From Acidimicrobiia bacterium (lineage in GTDB: Bacteria > Actinomycetota > Acidimicrobiia > Acidimicrobiales > JAHEJN01), in NCBI GenBank assembly GCA_963854565.1, contig CAWKZT010000001.1:1-35982 (forward strand): a stretch of 35,982 nucleotides of DNA, read 5' to 3'. The position numbers were made by a program, and so were the translations under genes. This document shows, piece after piece, positions 22,300 to 28,146 of this stretch (the first letter of the stretch is position 1; each line of letters begins with the position of its first letter). The notes beneath the pieces are model-generated. The model was not told the origin of the DNA, made no database searches, and saw only the letters and a program-made list of their open reading frames with translations.

Positions 22300-22525
22300 A
22301 GCTGATCCTTCGGAGTTCGGGACGAGTCGTTGAATGTTTCTAAATTGTAGGGGCTTGTGCAGCGTCGGCAATATCGAGTTGGGCGGTGGCGGTCTGAAGC
22401 ACCTGGGCTATTGGGGTGCGACTCCTCCCGTGGATACGGACCCGCATCTTGTTACAAACACTCTTCGTGTCAATTGACCGGGTACTTGGCAAAACCGTAG
22501 CCCGTGAATGTGGCACGCTGGGCGC

Positions 22526-24589
22526 ATGGACGTGCATTTGGTCGATGGGACCTACGAGCTATTTCGGTATCACTACAACCCTGCAAACAAAGATGATCGT
22601 CATGGTGCGACCAAAGGGGTGCTTTCGAGCATGCTCGACTTGGTGCGCGGAGGGGCGACACATGTTGGTATTGCGACCGATCATGTCATTACGTCTTTCC
22701 GCAACGACATGTACGACGATTACAAAGATGGCTCGGACATCGATCCGCAACTGCATGCGCAGTTCCCCGAGATTGAAGATGCACTGCGGGCGGCTGGCTT
22801 CACCGTCTTCCCAATGGTGGAGTATGAAGCCGACGACGGGATGGCTGCTGCTGCGGTGGCAGCCGAGAAAGATCCCGCGGTCGACAAAGTCATCATCTGC
22901 ACCCCGGACAAAGATTTGGGCCAGTGTGTTCGAGCCGACGGGCGCATTGTGCAGTACGACCGACGCAAGCAACTGATGATCGATCAAGCGGGCATTATTG
23001 AGAAATTCGGGGTACCTCCCGAGTCAATCCCGGACTACCTCGGGCTCGTTGGCGATACCGCCGATGGTTTTCCCGGATTACCGGGCTGGGGGGCCAAATC
23101 AACGGCAACGCTGTTAGCCAAGTATGGGCACATTCAGAACATCCCGCCGTCGTCCGATGACTGGCAGGTAAAGGTCCGCGGCGCCGTGAAGTTGGCCGTG
23201 ACTTTGCGCGAGAACTACGACGACGCATTGCTGTTCCGTAAGATCGCCACGGTCATCACCGACATCGACCTCTTCGGGTCCGTCGATGAGATGCGCTGGG
23301 ATGGTCCGACCCCAGCATTTGAACAGATTGCACGCGACCTCGGGCAGGTGGGGCTGTGGAAGCGAGCCGTCGAGTTGCATAAGAATCGTCGAGTCACAAA
23401 AGAGCCGATGACTGTTTCGCTTCGGCCCGTATCGCCCGCCGATCTCGGAGCGCTTTTGCCCATGAATAACGCGGCAGTTCCGGCCGTGAGCCATCTGGAA
23501 ATGCCCGCACTTGAGGCGTTGGTTGACCAGGCCGAATGGTTTACAGTCGTTGAGTCTGAAGGCGAGATAGCGGGTTTCTTGATTGGTATGCATGGTCCGG
23601 GTTTGCCCTACGCCAGTGTCAATTACCGTGAGTTCTGTCGGCGATTTCCTGACGGATTTTGGTACGTCGACCGCATTGTGGTTTCGCCGGACCACCGCAA
23701 CAAGCAGATCGGCGCCACGCTGTACGACGCGTTTGCGAAGTTTGGTCGAGCCAGTTTGGATGGGTCCGCGATAGGTGGTCCGCGTGTCTGCGCCGAGGTA
23801 AATGTTCGTCCGCGCAACGATGGTTCGCTGCGGTTCCACCGCCGTTTCGGGTTCCGCCCCATTGGTGAGTTGGACTATTCCGACGACGGCCAGCGGGTGA
23901 GTCTGTTGGCCTATGACCTCACCGATGGTGCCGCTCCGCTTGATCGGCATCACGTTGTTGACGTGACCGCCAAGCACGATCCCGACCTGGCGCAACGGTT
24001 AGAGTTTGTCTTCGATCTGGATCGTTTGAAGACGGTGCAACGCATGTCGCTCATTACCGATGGCAGTCGCCGCGAAAACACCGCCGAGCATTCGTGGCAT
24101 ATTGCCATGGTGGCTATTGCGTGTGCGCCCACTGCCGCTGAACCAATCAGTATTGATCGGGTGATCGAGATGCTGCTGGTACACGACATTGTTGAGGCTG
24201 ACGCGGGTGATGTCTATATCTACGATGAGCTCACCAGCGATGTCGCGGCAGCAAGTAAGTCTCGGCTCGAAACCGAAGCGGCGAGGCGGATCTTTGGTCT
24301 GTTACCCAATGGCGAGGGTGACCGACTCCGTGAACTTTGGGAAGAGTACGAAGGTCAGACCAGCGCCGATGCACGGTTTGCCAAGGCTTGTGACCGAATT
24401 CAGCCGTTCTTGTTGAATGCTGCCAACGGTGGAAAATCGTGGACAGAGAACAACATCACCGCTTCGCAGGTGCGTCACGCGATGAGCGAGGTCAAGGTCG
24501 GTGCACCAAGATTGGTCGAGATGGTCGAAAGACTCATAGCCGAGCAAGTAGCCATCGGCCACTTACCCGAAGGATCGCCCCCGACGTAA
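22526..24589 (+). CDS. three-domain fusion protein: 5'-3' exonuclease/FEN (PIN-like) + GNAT acetyltransferase + HD-domain phosphohydrolase
   Basis: N-terminal domain has VEYEADDGMAAAA, TPDKDLGQC and GLVGDTADGFPGLPGWGAKSTATLL (H3TH). The middle domain is GNAT, with motif A VDRIVVSPDHRNKQIGATLYDAF and LRFHRRFGF. The C-terminal domain has RRENTAEHSWHIAMVA and LVHDIVEADAGD, an HD of the YfbR-like type. It is one uninterrupted ORF. Confidence 0.8.
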   Translation: MDVHLVDGTYELFRYHYNPANKDDRHGATKGVLSSMLDLVRGGATHVGIATDHVITSFRNDMYDDYKDGSDIDPQLHAQFPEIEDALRAAGFTVFPMVEYEADDGMAAAAVAAEKDPAVDKVIICTPDKDLGQCVRADGRIVQYDRRKQLMIDQAGIIEKFGVPPESIPDYLGLVGDTADGFPGLPGWGAKSTATLLAKYGHIQNIPPSSDDWQVKVRGAVKLAVTLRENYDDALLFRKIATVITDIDLFGSVDEMRWDGPTPAFEQIARDLGQVGLWKRAVELHKNRRVTKEPMTVSLRPVSPADLGALLPMNNAAVPAVSHLEMPALEALVDQAEWFTVVESEGEIAGFLIGMHGPGLPYASVNYREFCRRFPDGFWYVDRIVVSPDHRNKQIGATLYDAFAKFGRASLDGSAIGGPRVCAEVNVRPRNDGSLRFHRRFGFRPIGELDYSDDGQRVSLLAYDLTDGAAPLDRHHVVDVTAKHDPDLAQRLEFVFDLDRLKTVQRMSLITDGSRRENTAEHSWHIAMVAIACAPTAAEPISIDRVIEMLLVHDIVEADAGDVYIYDELTSDVAAASKSRLETEAARRIFGLLPNGEGDRLRELWEEYEGQTSADARFAKACDRIQPFLLNAANGGKSWTENNITASQVRHAMSEVKVGAPRLVEMVERLIAEQVAIGHLPEGSPPT

Positions 24590-24658
24590 TTTTCCGTCCG
24601 GACACAGGAGGTCGTGCCGGCTAGCTCCGCGACGGGCGCGCCATCTACGCTCTTCGCC

Positions 24659-25798
24659 ATGACCTCGATTCGTCCGTATTCCATCCAAATAGATGACGAT
24701 GCTCTCGCCGATCTTGCGCAACGTCTGGCCAATACTCGCTTCCCCGAAGCCGAGCCGGTAGATGACTGGTCGCAGGGCATCCCGTTAGCGGAGGTGCAGA
24801 AACTGGCCGAGTACTGGCGAGACGAGTACGACTGGCGCGCTCGTGAATCTGGCATTAACAAGATTCCGGGGTTTGTCACCGAAATCGATGGTCTTGATAT
24901 TCACTTCCTGCACGCCCGGTCATCGAACCCCGATGCGCTCCCGATTGTGATGACCCACGGCTGGCCTGGCTCAGTTCTTGAGTTTCGCAAGATCATGCCA
25001 TTGCTTACCGAGCCCCAGGAGCACGGGGGCGAAGCGGCCGATGCGTTCCATGTAATTTGTCCGGCAATGCCCGGTTATGGATTTTCTGACAAGCCAGCCG
25101 AAACCGGCTGGACAGTTCAGCGTATTGGCGCGGCATGGGCTGAGTTGATGGGTCGTTTGGGATATGACAGGTACGTGGCGCAGGGCGGTGACTGGGGGTC
25201 AGCGGTAACCGCAGCTCTTGGGGCCCTTGCTCCGGACGGCCTCATAGCGGTTCACTCAAATATGCCGATCGCGCCGCCGACCGAAGAATCTATGGCGGAT
25301 CTCACTCCAGCCGAGATGGCCGCACTGGAAGCGTTTGGCTACTACGACGAGCACGATTCGGGTTACTCCAAACAACAAAGTACCCGACCCCAAACGCTGG
25401 GCTACGCGCTGGCTGACTCACCGGTGGGACAAATGGCTTGGATCGTCGAGAAGATTTCGCAGTGGACCGACAAGACGAGACCAGTCACCGACTTCTTTAG
25501 CTACGACGAGATTCTCGACAATGTCATGTTCTATTGGTTTACCAATGCAGGGACTTCGTCAGGCCGTCTCTACGCCGAGAGTTTCGGTAACTTTGCCGAA
25601 GATCCCGTGCAGGTGCCAGCCGGCGTTAGCGCCTTCCCCAACGAGATTCTTAAGACCAGTAAGCGGTGGTGCGAAGCAGGGAACTATCCAAATATCGTGT
25701 TCTGGTCTGACCATGAGCGTGGCGGTCATTTCCCTGCATGGGAAGTGCCGGAGTTATTAGCCGCCGACCTCCGAGCCATGTTCCGAACCTACCGATAG
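24659..25798 (+). CDS. epoxide hydrolase (N-terminal EHN domain + alpha/beta hydrolase fold)
   Basis: IRPYSIQIDDDALADLAQRLANTRFPE (EHN N-terminus), HGWPGS oxyanion motif and GGDWGS nucleophile motif. The track's GTG at 24614, only 2 nt after AGGAGG, is an alternative start. Confidence 0.85.
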   Translation: MTSIRPYSIQIDDDALADLAQRLANTRFPEAEPVDDWSQGIPLAEVQKLAEYWRDEYDWRARESGINKIPGFVTEIDGLDIHFLHARSSNPDALPIVMTHGWPGSVLEFRKIMPLLTEPQEHGGEAADAFHVICPAMPGYGFSDKPAETGWTVQRIGAAWAELMGRLGYDRYVAQGGDWGSAVTAALGALAPDGLIAVHSNMPIAPPTEESMADLTPAEMAALEAFGYYDEHDSGYSKQQSTRPQTLGYALADSPVGQMAWIVEKISQWTDKTRPVTDFFSYDEILDNVMFYWFTNAGTSSGRLYAESFGNFAEDPVQVPAGVSAFPNEILKTSKRWCEAGNYPNIVFWSDHERGGHFPAWEVPELLAADLRAMFRTYR

Positions 25799-25875: not shown

Positions 25876-26451
25876 CTAGTTCAGGCTGGTGATTCCTTCG
25901 ACTTTGTTTACTTCGGTGAGCAACTGAAGCGCATCGCTGGGCGTGTTGGCGTGATGGATTATGTCGCGGTTGCCCGAACGAATGAACCCCGCGTCGACTA
26001 CGGAGTCCAGGAAGTTGGTCATCTGATCCCAGAAGCCATCGCGATCTAGCAGAACCACCCGTTTGGGACGATCGTGCAGTTTGATCTGGGTCCAGGTGGC
26101 AGCCTCGAACACTTCTTCAAGTGTCCCGAGCCCTCCTGGTAGCGCAATAAATCCATCACTCAGGGCGTACATGAGTGATTTGCGAGCGTGCATGTCCGGC
26201 ACTTTGTGCAATTCGGTGATGGCTTCGTTGGGGATTTCGGTGGAGAATAGGCCCTGGGGGATGACGCCGATGACCTTGCCTCCCGCCGCCATAGTGGTTG
26301 CCGCAATGGTGCCCATGAGCCCAACCTCGCCGCCACCATAAACCAACTCGATATCTCGTTGAGCCAGCAGTTGGCCGAGTTCAATTGCCAGGTCAGTGTG
26401 CCCGGGCACGTTGCCATCATTGGATCCACAAAAAACACAAACACGCTTCAT
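25876..26451 (-). CDS. LOG family protein (cytokinin riboside 5'-monophosphate phosphoribohydrolase / lysine-decarboxylase-like)
   Basis: MKRVCVFCGS, VYGGGEVGLMG and PGGLGTLEE(V)FE motifs. I prefer the ATG at 26451 over the track start at 26688. Confidence 0.85.
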   Translation of the reverse strand: MKRVCVFCGSNDGNVPGHTDLAIELGQLLAQRDIELVYGGGEVGLMGTIAATTMAAGGKVIGVIPQGLFSTEIPNEAITELHKVPDMHARKSLMYALSDGFIALPGGLGTLEEVFEAATWTQIKLHDRPKRVVLLDRDGFWDQMTNFLDSVVDAGFIRSGNRDIIHHANTPSDALQLLTEVNKVEGITSLN

Positions 26452-26589
26452 AGCGAACGAACGTAACCCATCACCGCCGTTGGGGTCGAAACATTCGTGT
26501 CGGTGATGGTGCACTACGGTCAGGGTGGCCGAACTACTATGCCGCCGACTCTCTTGTTGATTTTGACTACCACGGAATAGCTTTACAAC

Positions 26590-28146
26590 ATGTCTGAAAA
26601 TCCTCTGACGGCACAGCTTGCCGATCTTCGTGCTCGCAAGGAAGAAGCAATTCACGCGGGCTCGGAGCGGTCGGTGCAACGTCAACACGACAAGGGCAAG
26701 ATGCTCGCTCGCGAACGCATCGACTATTTGCTTGATCCGGGGTCATTTCACGAGATCGATCAACTTACCCGCCACCGTGCTACCGAAGCTGGACTTCCGG
26801 GCCGTCCCTACACCGACGGCGTAGTCACTGGGTGGGGGACCGTTGACGGGCGAAAAGTGTTCTTGTTCTCGCAGGACTTCACCGTCTTCGGTGGTGCTCT
26901 CGGCGAAATGTTTGCGAGCAAGATTCAGAAGGTCATGGACCTCGCCTTGTCTGTCGGAGCGCCGATGATTGGTCTCAACGATGGTGCCGGTGCCCGCATC
27001 CAGGAGGGTGTGGCCAGTCTCGATAGCTACGGCGGTATTTTTTATCGAAATGTGCAGTCCTCAGGGGTCATTCCGCAGATCAGTGTGGTGCTCGGCCCCT
27101 GTGCGGGTGGCGCGGTTTACAGCCCGGCTATGACCGACTTCATTTTCATGGTGCGCGAACACTCCCATATGTTCATTACTGGCCCCGATGTGGTTAAGGC
27201 GGTCACGGGCGAAGAGGTCACGCTCGAAGAGTTAGGTGGCGCAGGAAGCCACGCTAGTAAGTCGGGCGTCGCCACATTCACCGGCGCCACCGAAGAAGAG
27301 GTCCTCGACGACGTCAAGGTGCTGCTTTCCTTCCTGCCGTCCAACAATGTTGAGGCGCCGCCGGCCATCGAAACAACCGACGATCCCGAACGTCTTTGCC
27401 CCGAACTCAACGATGTTCTTCCCGCAACCTCCAATCAGCCTTACGACATGCGCGACGTCATAAAGTCTGTCGTCGACAACGGCGATTTCTTCGAGTACTT
27501 CCCCAGTTGGGCTCCCAGCATTGTGTGCGGATTTGCTCGTCTTGATGGCCACGTCGTTGGCGTGGTCGGCAACCAACCCCTCGTGCTTGCTGGTGTGCTC
27601 GATATTGAGTCCGCCGAGAAGGCCGCTCGTTTCGTCCGCACCTGCGATGCATTTAATATTCCGCTGTTCACCCTGGTTGATGTGCCCGGTTTCTTGCCGG
27701 GTGTAGATCAAGAACACGGCGGCATTATTCGCCACGGTGCCAAGTTGCTGTACGCCTACTGTGAAGCCACAGTGCCTCGTGTTCAGGTCACGACGCGCAA
27801 GGCCTATGGCGGTGCCTACGTGGTCATGGATTCCAAAGGCGTCGGCTGCGATATCGCCTACGCCTGGCCATCAGCCGAGCTCGCCGTAATGGGCCCACAG
27901 GGTGCGGTCGAGATTCTCAATCGTCGCGAACTCCAGTCAGCCGCCGACCCCGTCGCCAAGAAGGCCGAACTAATCGCCGAGTACACCGCCAAGTTTTCCA
28001 ACCCGTACGTTGCCGCGGAACAGGGCTTCATTGATGACGTAATCGAACCGGCCGATACTCGCCGTAAAGTCATCGCGGCGTTCCGAGTTCTCCGCACCAA
28101 ACACTCCGAGACGCCGCAGCGCAAGCACGGCAACGTCCCGCTGTAG
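26590..28146 (+). CDS. pccB: propionyl-/acyl-CoA carboxylase beta chain (carboxyltransferase)
   Basis: The pattern is typical of PccB/AccD5 throughout: KGKMLARERIDYLLDPGSF, FSQDFTVFGGALGE, and GGIIRHGAKLLYAYCEATVPRV. Confidence 0.9.
   Translation: MSENPLTAQLADLRARKEEAIHAGSERSVQRQHDKGKMLARERIDYLLDPGSFHEIDQLTRHRATEAGLPGRPYTDGVVTGWGTVDGRKVFLFSQDFTVFGGALGEMFASKIQKVMDLALSVGAPMIGLNDGAGARIQEGVASLDSYGGIFYRNVQSSGVIPQISVVLGPCAGGAVYSPAMTDFIFMVREHSHMFITGPDVVKAVTGEEVTLEELGGAGSHASKSGVATFTGATEEEVLDDVKVLLSFLPSNNVEAPPAIETTDDPERLCPELNDVLPATSNQPYDMRDVIKSVVDNGDFFEYFPSWAPSIVCGFARLDGHVVGVVGNQPLVLAGVLDIESAEKAARFVRTCDAFNIPLFTLVDVPGFLPGVDQEHGGIIRHGAKLLYAYCEATVPRVQVTTRKAYGGAYVVMDSKGVGCDIAYAWPSAELAVMGPQGAVEILNRRELQSAADPVAKKAELIAEYTAKFSNPYVAAEQGFIDDVIEPADTRRKVIAAFRVLRTKHSETPQRKHGNVPL

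Follow-up and report, generated by a model that had tools for sequence, protein, structure and literature searches.

In mycobacteria, excision gaps of 1–3 nucleotides (nt) are filled with ribonucleotides by the polymerase Prim-PolC and sealed by the ligase LigC (PMC5663958), in a stationary-phase pathway that has been described without a 5'-flap nuclease or a step for nucleotide disposal. LigD and the LigB-MBL nuclease fusion in Opitutus are precedents for the partners of a repair operon becoming one polypeptide (PMC10140301). Phosphohydrolases of the HD_3 family are ubiquitous, from bacteria to humans (HDDC2), and their physiological role is poorly defined; the characterised members of the HD_3/YfbR group are metal-dependent nucleoside 5'-monophosphatases (PMC5098729). 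Here we describe a gene of an Acidimicrobiia bacterium, located in a stretch of 35,982 nucleotides (contig CAWKZT010000001.1 of assembly GCA_963854565.1; the whole stretch is called the window below), that encodes in one frame a Pol I-type 5' flap nuclease, an acyltransferase domain of the GNAT fold and an HD_3 domain. The gene almost certainly arose when three adjacent and translationally coupled genes of an Acidimicrobiia DNA-repair cluster fused step by step; in relatives, its parts share an operon with Prim-PolC, with LigC close by.

One gene with three constrained modules

The fused gene is a single uninterrupted frame on the forward strand, for which the list of open reading frames (ORFs) gives 693 amino acids from a first ATG, at 22508, and 687 from a second; the second is the likely start, because homologues begin M-x-V-H-L-[VI]-[DN]-G-T-Y-E in an alignment of relatives. 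An identical 687-residue protein is encoded on contigs of five independent metagenome assemblies, from different samples and assemblers (loci L006–L010), with the same gene neighbours as in the window, and the fused frame is present in at least six independent assemblies. Further 687-residue variants, 94–99% identical and with the frame open, occur in the same 90%-identity cluster, drawn from JGI, NCBI, ENA, Logan and GEM. The most divergent member belongs to an uncultured Acidimicrobiia metagenome-assembled genome (MAG; locus L012), at a synonymous divergence (dS) of 0.30 from the window; the organism names of relatives are the submitters' labels (Acidimicrobiia or Acidimicrobiales MAGs). Between the window and L012, the ratio of nonsynonymous to synonymous divergence (dN/dS) comes to 0.04 in the nuclease, 0.11 in each of the GNAT and HD domains and 0.10 over the whole gene. 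Constraint is relaxed in the short linkers alone, with a dN/dS of ~0.4, from few sites, in the nuclease/GNAT linker. All three domains are under purifying selection, and since the frame has stayed open across a dS of 0.30 with every domain constrained, it is maintained by selection on the three modules. The ORF is thus a genuine, selectively maintained single gene and no assembly artefact.

An earlier note, made from the letters of the window, had described one 687-codon frame with three modules. Both observations are borne out, the frame by the ORF list and by the identical protein in independent assemblies, and the modules by Pfam, whose gathering cut-offs all three exceed; the domain boundaries given there were right to within a few codons. 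The artefact that the note had allowed for, in which errors at the junctions merged three genes, is refuted by the at least six assemblies and by purifying selection at a dS of ~0.3. An antisense ORF of 293 amino acids (23114–23995, reverse strand) lies wholly within the fused gene and most likely reflects the high G+C content instead of a real gene.

The nuclease module carries the two Pfam domains of its family in the correct order, 5_3_exonuc_N (PF02739; 92.1 bits against a gathering cut-off of 34.3) and 5_3_exonuc/H3TH (PF01367; 68.9 bits against 40), and ends in a C-terminal helical tail that closes with a conserved R-A-V-E-L. NCBIfam assigns the N-terminus of the fused protein to the 5'-nuclease part of Pol I or ExoIX. 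Among solved structures, the best match by sequence is the FEN/EXO domain of Mycobacterium smegmatis Pol I (6VDE, E 1e-25); ExoIX and FenA are also among the closest. In alignment, the acidic metal-ligand set (D7, D51, E101, D103, D104, D128, D130, D177 and D180) matches that of M. smegmatis Pol I, and a Taq alignment covers the same ligands except D7; we take the Taq equivalents to be D18, D67, E117, D119, D120, D142 and D144, together with the H3TH aspartates. Every metal-binding acidic residue is kept, and the catalytic site is predicted to be intact. The module is 72–76% identical to the separate 288-residue nucleases encoded at L001, L005 and L092.

The central module is assigned to the GNAT fold by profile and by predicted structure. 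Acetyltransf_1 covers residues 334–443 with 38.9 bits (gathering cut-off 20.7), and the AlphaFold model, with a predicted local distance difference test (pLDDT) score of 93, has the beta-alpha topology and matches 633 GNAT structures of the PDB at E <= 1e-3 in Foldseek. The nearest of these are phosphinothricin/amino-acid-analogue acetyltransferases and N-alpha-acetyltransferases of the Ard1/RimI type (TM-score 0.65–0.72); their identity to the domain does not exceed 23%, which is too low to name an acceptor. A sequence search of the PDB with the domain gave no match at E <= 1e-3. Family members that stand alone are ~165 residues long, and the family motif A reads R-x-x-G-x-G. Only the triple-fusion lineage (window and L012) has R-N-K-Q-I-G, with glutamine in place of the central glycine, whereas all aligned unfused GNAT-HD proteins, separate GNAT genes and stand-alone relatives keep the G-x-G core. 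The earlier note had called the acetyl-CoA motif A intact, which was mistaken: the window sequence departs from the canonical Q/R-x-x-G-x-G/A. A six-residue insertion, S-L-D-G-S-A, follows helix alpha-3 (around 23750–23790) in the same lineage only, and the glutamine and the insertion both coincide with the attachment of the nuclease. The other residues that are invariant in the family are retained, and the domain is still constrained despite its altered motif (dN/dS 0.11 against L012). Many active GNATs depart from the canonical motif A, so a loss of activity does not follow from the change. The domain may transfer acetyl groups to a partner protein or to a small amine, or may serve as an acyl-CoA-binding regulatory module.

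The C-terminal module matches HD_3 (PF13023) over residues 498–655 with 166.9 bits (cut-off 22.5, E 5e-49). By sequence it matches the structures 3KH1 (PDB; E 1e-48) and HDDC2 (4DMB; E 2e-16), and it is ~50% identical to the stand-alone 3KH1 across the whole domain. The full H...HD...D site is kept together with the glutamate of HDxxE, and the HD catalytic site is predicted to be intact. The earlier assignment to a YfbR-like HD domain was correct as to the HD domain, here HD_3, and too specific as to YfbR: the score against the YfbR equivalog NF003009 is 36.9 bits with a cut-off of 122, which places the domain in the same broad group without making it a YfbR orthologue. The first histidine motif, likewise given there as H-x-H, is H-x-x-H (HSWH). 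By analogy with its characterised relatives, the domain may act as a phosphatase of (deoxy)nucleoside monophosphates ((d)NMPs). A predicted structure of the full-length protein reached a pLDDT of 77 and a predicted template modelling score (pTM) of 0.55.

Origin of the fusion and its gene neighbourhood

Whether relatives encode the parts as adjacent genes had been raised in the earlier note, and they do: the nuclease gene is followed by a GNAT-HD gene at L001, L005 and L092 and by an HD gene at other loci. The first three are syntenic with the window (ParA, M23 peptidase and thiolase) at 57–63% identity, and in each a nuclease gene of 288 codons overlaps a GNAT-HD gene for 384–403 amino acids through GTGA or ATGA. 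The overlap sits at a homologous position and reads GTGA in L001 and ATGA in L005, L092, L121 and L129; the ATGA persists as a relic in the window and in L012. From the Leu codon of the conserved R-A-x-E-L to the downstream ATG or GTG there are 30 nt in the window and L012 and 11 nt in L001 and L005, a net gain of 19 nt (+1 modulo 3); the nuclease frame is therefore continuous with that of GNAT, and the TGA is out of frame. The order of events is that GNAT and HD_3 were joined first, and that the nuclease was added later by a +1 frame change in its last codons, reading through the ATGA overlap. The two-domain GNAT-HD_3 protein is known from several lineages.

The internal methionine that had been noticed on the nuclease/GNAT boundary, at 23408, is indeed there and is what remains of the start codon of the downstream gene; as Met295 of the fused protein, it may still serve as an internal start for GNAT-HD. 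At the junctions, no promoter or terminator signal rose above shuffled expectation. The origin of the GNAT-HD linker (Table 1) was read from an alignment with unfused GNAT-HD proteins; stand-alone nuclease-linked HD proteins match from query residue ~171–178.

The same components occur in at least six different arrangements (Table 1), with overlapping stop and start codons and with nucleases that are 55–64% identical across lineages. These come from a scan of metagenome contigs with patterns that lay in the HD domain; the 80 HD_3 loci listed were screened with the three domains and with neighbour proteins, so that the survey of architectures is a sample among the matches listed rather than a census, and no more GNAT-HD proteins of this type were found among the matches listed. 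The neighbouring polymerase matches 5OP0 and 6SA0, which are structures of M. smegmatis Prim-PolC (PMC7442782), at E ~1e-105, and the neighbouring ligase scores 492 bits against NF006078, a LigC-type equivalog of 350 amino acids (cut-off 296). A reading of these neighbours as LigD and non-homologous end joining was rejected, as the polymerase best matches Prim-PolC and the ligase is of the 350-residue LigC type; no Ku, PE domain or LigD-length ligase was present among the called genes of the loci. At L092, Prim-PolC alone is present and the contig ends there. Eleven of the screened loci have the nuclease followed by HD with no GNAT, and at three of these (L104–L106) LigC lies ~1.5 kb away. This DNA-repair neighbourhood, the best functional clue, was absent from the earlier note.

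The triple fusion arose inside the Prim-PolC/LigC cluster, because the fused gene of L012 still has that context, and the window lineage later lost a DivIVA-like gene, Prim-PolC, LigC and an MFS gene from the locus. The HD_3 proteins linked to the nuclease have a mean identity of 62% among themselves, against 48% to unlinked ones, and all fall within a 30-member subclade of the 165 sampled. A GTDB scan, whose patterns selected HD_3 proteins of other phyla, and three distant nuclease loci had suggested that the nuclease-HD link might be restricted to a very narrow clade, a view dropped when the metagenome loci showed a wider spread. The stand-alone GNAT relatives were rejected as a functional guide, since their context is unrelated (glycerophosphotransferase, beta-lactamase).

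Other neighbours vary between the loci. The order of HD, epoxide hydrolase and LOG-family gene seen in the window also occurs at L102 and L103, where HD is a separate gene and there is no GNAT, and therefore the history of the locus exceeds a simple deletion of Prim-PolC and LigC. A DivIVA-domain protein of ~266 amino acids is encoded between the thiolase and nuclease genes in L001 (4247–5047, reverse strand), L005, L092 and L012 (4257–5006, reverse strand); the window has no such gene, and its thiolase gene lies ~150 bp from the fused gene (22372–22525). Beside the nuclease gene, and divergent from it, L102 and L103 (1751–4285, reverse strand) and L104 (1268–3814, reverse strand) encode a helicase of ~845 amino acids (DEAD and Helicase_C) with a C-terminal Glyoxalase_3 domain. 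The same helicase is fragmented at L011 (2271–4443, with HA2 pieces) and is perhaps another member of the neighbourhood. In arrangement E, a YibE/F-family membrane protein is encoded between GNAT and Prim-PolC (L129, 1888–3231, reverse strand) and a small GTPase (MMR_HSR1) between HD and LigC (L129, 5683–6264, reverse strand), with equivalents of both in L121.

Table 1. Features of the fused gene and its flank in the window, and arrangements of the same components at related loci.
Feature	Position in the window, or loci	Strand	Basis or remarks
Whole fused gene	22526..24589	+	687 codons plus stop; alternative upstream ATG at 22508
Pol I-type 5' flap endonuclease / 5'-3' exonuclease, residues 1-284	22526..23377	+	PF02739 and PF01367
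Resolvase-like N-domain of the nuclease, residues 3-162	22532-23011	+	5_3_exonuc_N
H3TH domain of the nuclease, residues 163-262	23012-23311	+	5_3_exonuc
Fusion linker H-K-N-R-R-V-T-K-E-P, residues 285-294	23378..23407	+	altered length and frame
ATGA relic of the start/stop overlap	23408..23411	+	ATG once started GNAT(-HD) and now encodes Met295; TGA once ended the nuclease gene
GNAT-fold acyltransferase domain, residues 295-466	23408..23923	+	Acetyltransf_1, Acetyltransf_7
GNAT motif A, R391-N-K-Q394-I-G396	23696-23713	+	family alignments
GNAT-HD linker, residues 467-486	23924..23983	+	originally the HD protein's N-terminal extension
HD_3 metal-dependent phosphohydrolase domain (predicted), residues 487-687	23984..24586	+	Pfam HD_3
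Predicted metal/catalytic residues of the HD domain	H522 24089-24091; H553-D554 24182-24187; E557; D623 24392-24394	+	alignment with 3KH1 and HDDC2
Epoxide hydrolase (EHN and alpha/beta hydrolase), 3' of the fused gene	24614-25798	+	
LOG-family gene, 3' of the epoxide hydrolase gene	25876-26688	-	
Arrangement A: fused gene, without Prim-PolC or LigC nearby	window, L006-L010		
Arrangement B: fused gene, then Prim-PolC, LigC convergent	L012		
Arrangement C: nuclease, GNAT-HD, Prim-PolC, LigC convergent	L001, L005; L092 partial		
Arrangement D: nuclease, HD, without GNAT	L102, L103, L110, L115-L118, L142, L011		often overlapping as ATGGATAA
Arrangement D with LigC	L104-L106		LigC ~1.5 kb downstream
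Arrangement E: nuclease, separate GNAT, then Prim-PolC, separate HD, LigC	L121, L129		ATGA overlap of nuclease and GNAT, same GNAT family; all within ~7 kb
Arrangement F: nuclease, Prim-PolC, LigC-like ligase, without GNAT or HD	L101		

Proposed role in repair and the alternatives

Judged by the company that its parts keep, the fused protein and its orthologues probably act in repair of the LigC/Prim-PolC type. In such a pathway, the nuclease would trim 5' flaps or 5' ends (displaced, blocked or RNA-DNA) at short gaps, so that the remaining nick can be ligated. The HD_3 domain tethered to it would split the 5'-(d)NMPs thus set free into nucleoside and phosphate, a step that would dispose of the excision products or recycle them. 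The earlier note had hinted at coupled nucleic-acid processing, an idea that the nuclease-HD_3 pair, conserved and repeatedly linked to Prim-PolC and LigC, supports indirectly. That HD_3 serves specifically to clean up nucleoside monophosphates (NMPs) is a tentative proposal, and one that could well be wrong.

Several points weigh against this role in repair. The function of the clade is read from sequence and gene neighbourhood, and papers on LigC and Prim-PolC make no mention of a flap nuclease (PMC5663958, PMC7442782). HD_3 may miss the direct products of the nuclease, because flap nucleases mainly release oligonucleotides. At the window locus, as at L006–L010, there is neither Prim-PolC nor LigC, so that in this lineage the fused gene persists apart from the repair cluster. 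The full-length model has no sign of fixed packing between the domains (pTM 0.55), the nearest GNAT structures use amino acids or protein N-termini and have no tie to nucleic acids, and the change from glycine to glutamine in motif A could weaken the binding of acetyl-CoA. The nuclease-HD link is also clade-specific, because 80 HD_3 loci of other phyla in a GTDB scan had no nuclease or GNAT within 6 kb, and three distant nuclease orthologues had no HD or GNAT downstream.

A bolder version of the repair role, in which nuclease, HD_3 and GNAT are dedicated accessory subunits of an Acidimicrobiia LigC/Prim-PolC machine for ribonucleotide-patch repair and at least one of them has a chemistry new to its family, has a small chance of being right. 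Candidate chemistries are that HD_3 may heal blocked DNA ends or destroy damaged excision products, and that GNAT may acetylate a repair partner or an amine derived from nucleic acid.

The alternative that survives best is an incidental fusion, in which a neutral frameshift merged an independent back-up flap nuclease, a 5'-nucleotidase of the nucleotide pool and a small-molecule acetyltransferase, with no coupled chemistry and no dedicated role beside LigC and Prim-PolC. Such an accident fits the confinement of the triple fusion to one species-level clade, and the fact that the window lineage dropped Prim-PolC and LigC from the locus yet kept the gene. It fits as well the promiscuity with which HD_3 joins patatin, Mur ligase, EamA, radical SAM and alpha/beta-hydrolase domains, the independent GNAT-HD_3 fusions in unrelated contexts, and a pTM of 0.55, which suggests beads on a string. 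What it leaves unaccounted for is that the components recur in at least six arrangements, with overlapping codons, across lineages whose nucleases are 55–64% identical, that the same partners took part in two successive fusion events, and that the linked HD_3 proteins form a subgroup of their own. We therefore consider an incidental fusion unlikely, though a serious alternative.

The HD module of Deinococcus HD-Pnk plays a DNA-end-healing role, and in a second alternative the HD domain would likewise heal DNA ends, removing a 3'-phosphate or other block at gaps before extension by Prim-PolC. Its role would then parallel those of the LigD phosphoesterase domain and of EndoIV/XthA in the mycobacterial LigC pathway, which when reconstituted requires a 3'-phosphatase step (PMC5663958). 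The HD gene adjoins Prim-PolC and LigC at L121 and L129 and lies within the operon at L001, L005 and L012, and no gene with a PE domain was seen in these loci. The domain itself speaks for a different substrate: it is 48–52% identical to ubiquitous stand-alone HD_3 proteins, whose characterised relatives act on mononucleotides, and no DNA-binding surface is marked in its sequence. End healing by the HD domain thus has a slim chance.

Nuclease, HD and GNAT domains are also common building blocks of conflict systems; an anti-phage defence or nucleotide-depletion effector combining them is nevertheless very improbable here, with 0 PADLOC families at E <= 0.01 for the protein or its neighbours, no plasmid record with the architecture, and a chromosomal housekeeping context (ParA, M23 peptidase, thiolase, LOG) that is syntenic across lineages. 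An assembly or sequencing artefact, with indels at the junctions wrongly merging three genes, is a negligible prospect, for although look-alike merges from frameshift-ridden contigs (P0006 at L011, ~1x, and P0120 at L101) proved to be artefacts, the same frame here recurs in six or more assemblies made independently, from different samples and with different assemblers, and is kept across a dS of 0.30 with every domain under purifying selection.

Rarity and comparison with known systems

Among ~5.8 billion clusters at 90% identity, representing ~15 billion proteins, all three domains occur together only in the cluster of the query itself, one member of which had already been tagged with all three domain names by the JGI pipeline. 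When 1.84 billion representatives were scanned exhaustively with HMMER, with the GNAT-HD part as query, a single protein of this GNAT-HD type came up (P0255, from Acidimicrobiia) and no further triple fusion. In a literature search, we found no paper on the triple architecture, nor one connecting a flap nuclease with Prim-PolC/LigC. The order GNAT then HD_3 is also found in other organisms with other GNAT subtypes, for example in Parachitinimonas caeni (WP_284099577.1), and these proteins outside Acidimicrobiia are independent fusions, because their GNAT subtypes and contexts are unrelated. The uniqueness is thus limited to the attachment of the nuclease, as proteins with GNAT and HD_3 are already widespread; of the three-way architecture that the earlier note did not recognise, the triple fusion is indeed rare, whereas the GNAT+HD_3 pair is not novel.

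Candidate fusions in which HD_3 shares an ORF with NUDIX, HIT, LMW phosphatase, radical SAM, patatin, Mur ligase, EamA or alpha/beta-hydrolase were also seen (P0263, P0373, P0283, P0293, P0385, P0386, P0273 and P0325). NUDIX and HIT enzymes set NMPs free, as a 5' exonuclease does, and their pairing with HD_3 would fit an HD_3 acting after enzymes of that kind. Tandem HD_3-HD_3 proteins of ~400 amino acids are common (P0256–P0261, P0265, P0267, P0276 and P0287; loci L023, L040, L043, L062 and L074), and Cognatishimia genomes carry two adjacent HD_3 copies. Fusions in the reverse order, HD-GNAT, were considered and rejected, the matches in two stretches being tandem HD_3-HD_3 duplications.

Other apparent fusions of the nuclease were rejected as well. 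P0006 is no independent nuclease-HD fusion, as it lies on a contig of ~1x with the N-terminus of the nuclease and the C-terminus of the HD protein in other frames; despite this artefact, its locus, L011, does have a genuine adjacency of nuclease and HD genes. P0120 (nuclease and Prim-Pol) comes from the frameshift-prone contig L101 (GCA_036704275.1). Both contigs are rich in frameshifts, with genes broken into two or three ORFs. Among the nuclease homologues of 380–1046 amino acids, the three examined (P0012, P0019 and P0061) do not have extra domains: their length beyond ~290 amino acids is a spurious upstream extension of the ORF, in high-GC genomes, with the true start internal, and the same may hold for others in this size range. 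P0007 and P0008 carry C-terminal nuclease domains behind 260–760 residues that have no Pfam match, consistent with the same kind of extension. P0074 (1023 amino acids, on a contig of 966 kb) is a nuclease orthologue with 5_nucleotid_C, a UshA-type nucleotidase domain unrelated to HD, ~300 residues upstream; it is either an independent nuclease-nucleotidase association or an artefact of ORF extension.

The locus is valuable mainly because it points, by comparative genomics, to new accessory factors in LigC/Prim-PolC repair, for which Acidimicrobiia appear to have a dedicated flap endonuclease (FEN), an HD_3 and often a GNAT partner. For HD_3, the link to a DNA nuclease gives a concrete context. 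The single-polypeptide version would be a convenient reagent for asking whether the products of the nuclease pass to the phosphatase, and the lineage-specific change in motif A is a natural variant with which to probe the contribution of GNAT. If the modules were dedicated accessory subunits, the triple fusion would serve as a Rosetta stone, made by nature, for a repair complex of several enzymes.

Each module belongs to a known family, with the caveats that the GNAT motif A is non-canonical and the HD domain no YfbR orthologue. The nuclease has the same Pfam pair and acidic ligands as the stand-alone FENs (M. smegmatis FenA, Escherichia coli ExoIX/Xni and Bacillus subtilis FenA) and the 5' nuclease of Pol I. 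Unlike Pol I, neither the window protein nor its unfused orthologues of ~288 amino acids have a polymerase domain, and unlike FenA and ExoIX, the window nuclease shares its polypeptide chain with GNAT and HD_3. In a literature search on FenA and ExoIX, we did not find reported an operon with HD_3, GNAT and Prim-PolC of the kind seen for the orthologues of the window nuclease. The HD domain has in common with the YfbR-HDDC2 group (E. coli YfbR, the Trypanosoma brucei HD nucleotidase, human HDDC2 and 3KH1) the HD_3 profile, H...HD...D and HDxxE; unlike YfbR, it falls below the equivalog cut-off and in a subgroup encoded downstream of a flap-nuclease gene. GNAT+HD_3 proteins such as WP_284099577.1 and MDH3753472.1, the latter of an Acidimicrobiia MAG, have the same order of GNAT then HD_3 as the window protein. 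The Acidimicrobiia GNAT-HD_3 proteins (P0002–P0005 and P0255) are its direct relatives, at 57–63% identity, whereas none of the GNAT+HD_3 proteins elsewhere has a nuclease.

Clear orthologues of the mycobacterial LigC/Prim-PolC complex, whose pathway needs end-processing nucleases (PMC5663958, PMC7442782), adjoin the relatives of the window gene. The partners named for the mycobacterial LigC pathway are FPG, EndoIV and ExoIII/XthA, with no mention of a flap nuclease, HD or GNAT (PMC5663958). Unlike the LigD and LigB fusions, the window protein is without a ligase, polymerase or PE domain and without Ku, and it joins instead a flap nuclease, a GNAT domain and an HD_3 domain in one polypeptide.

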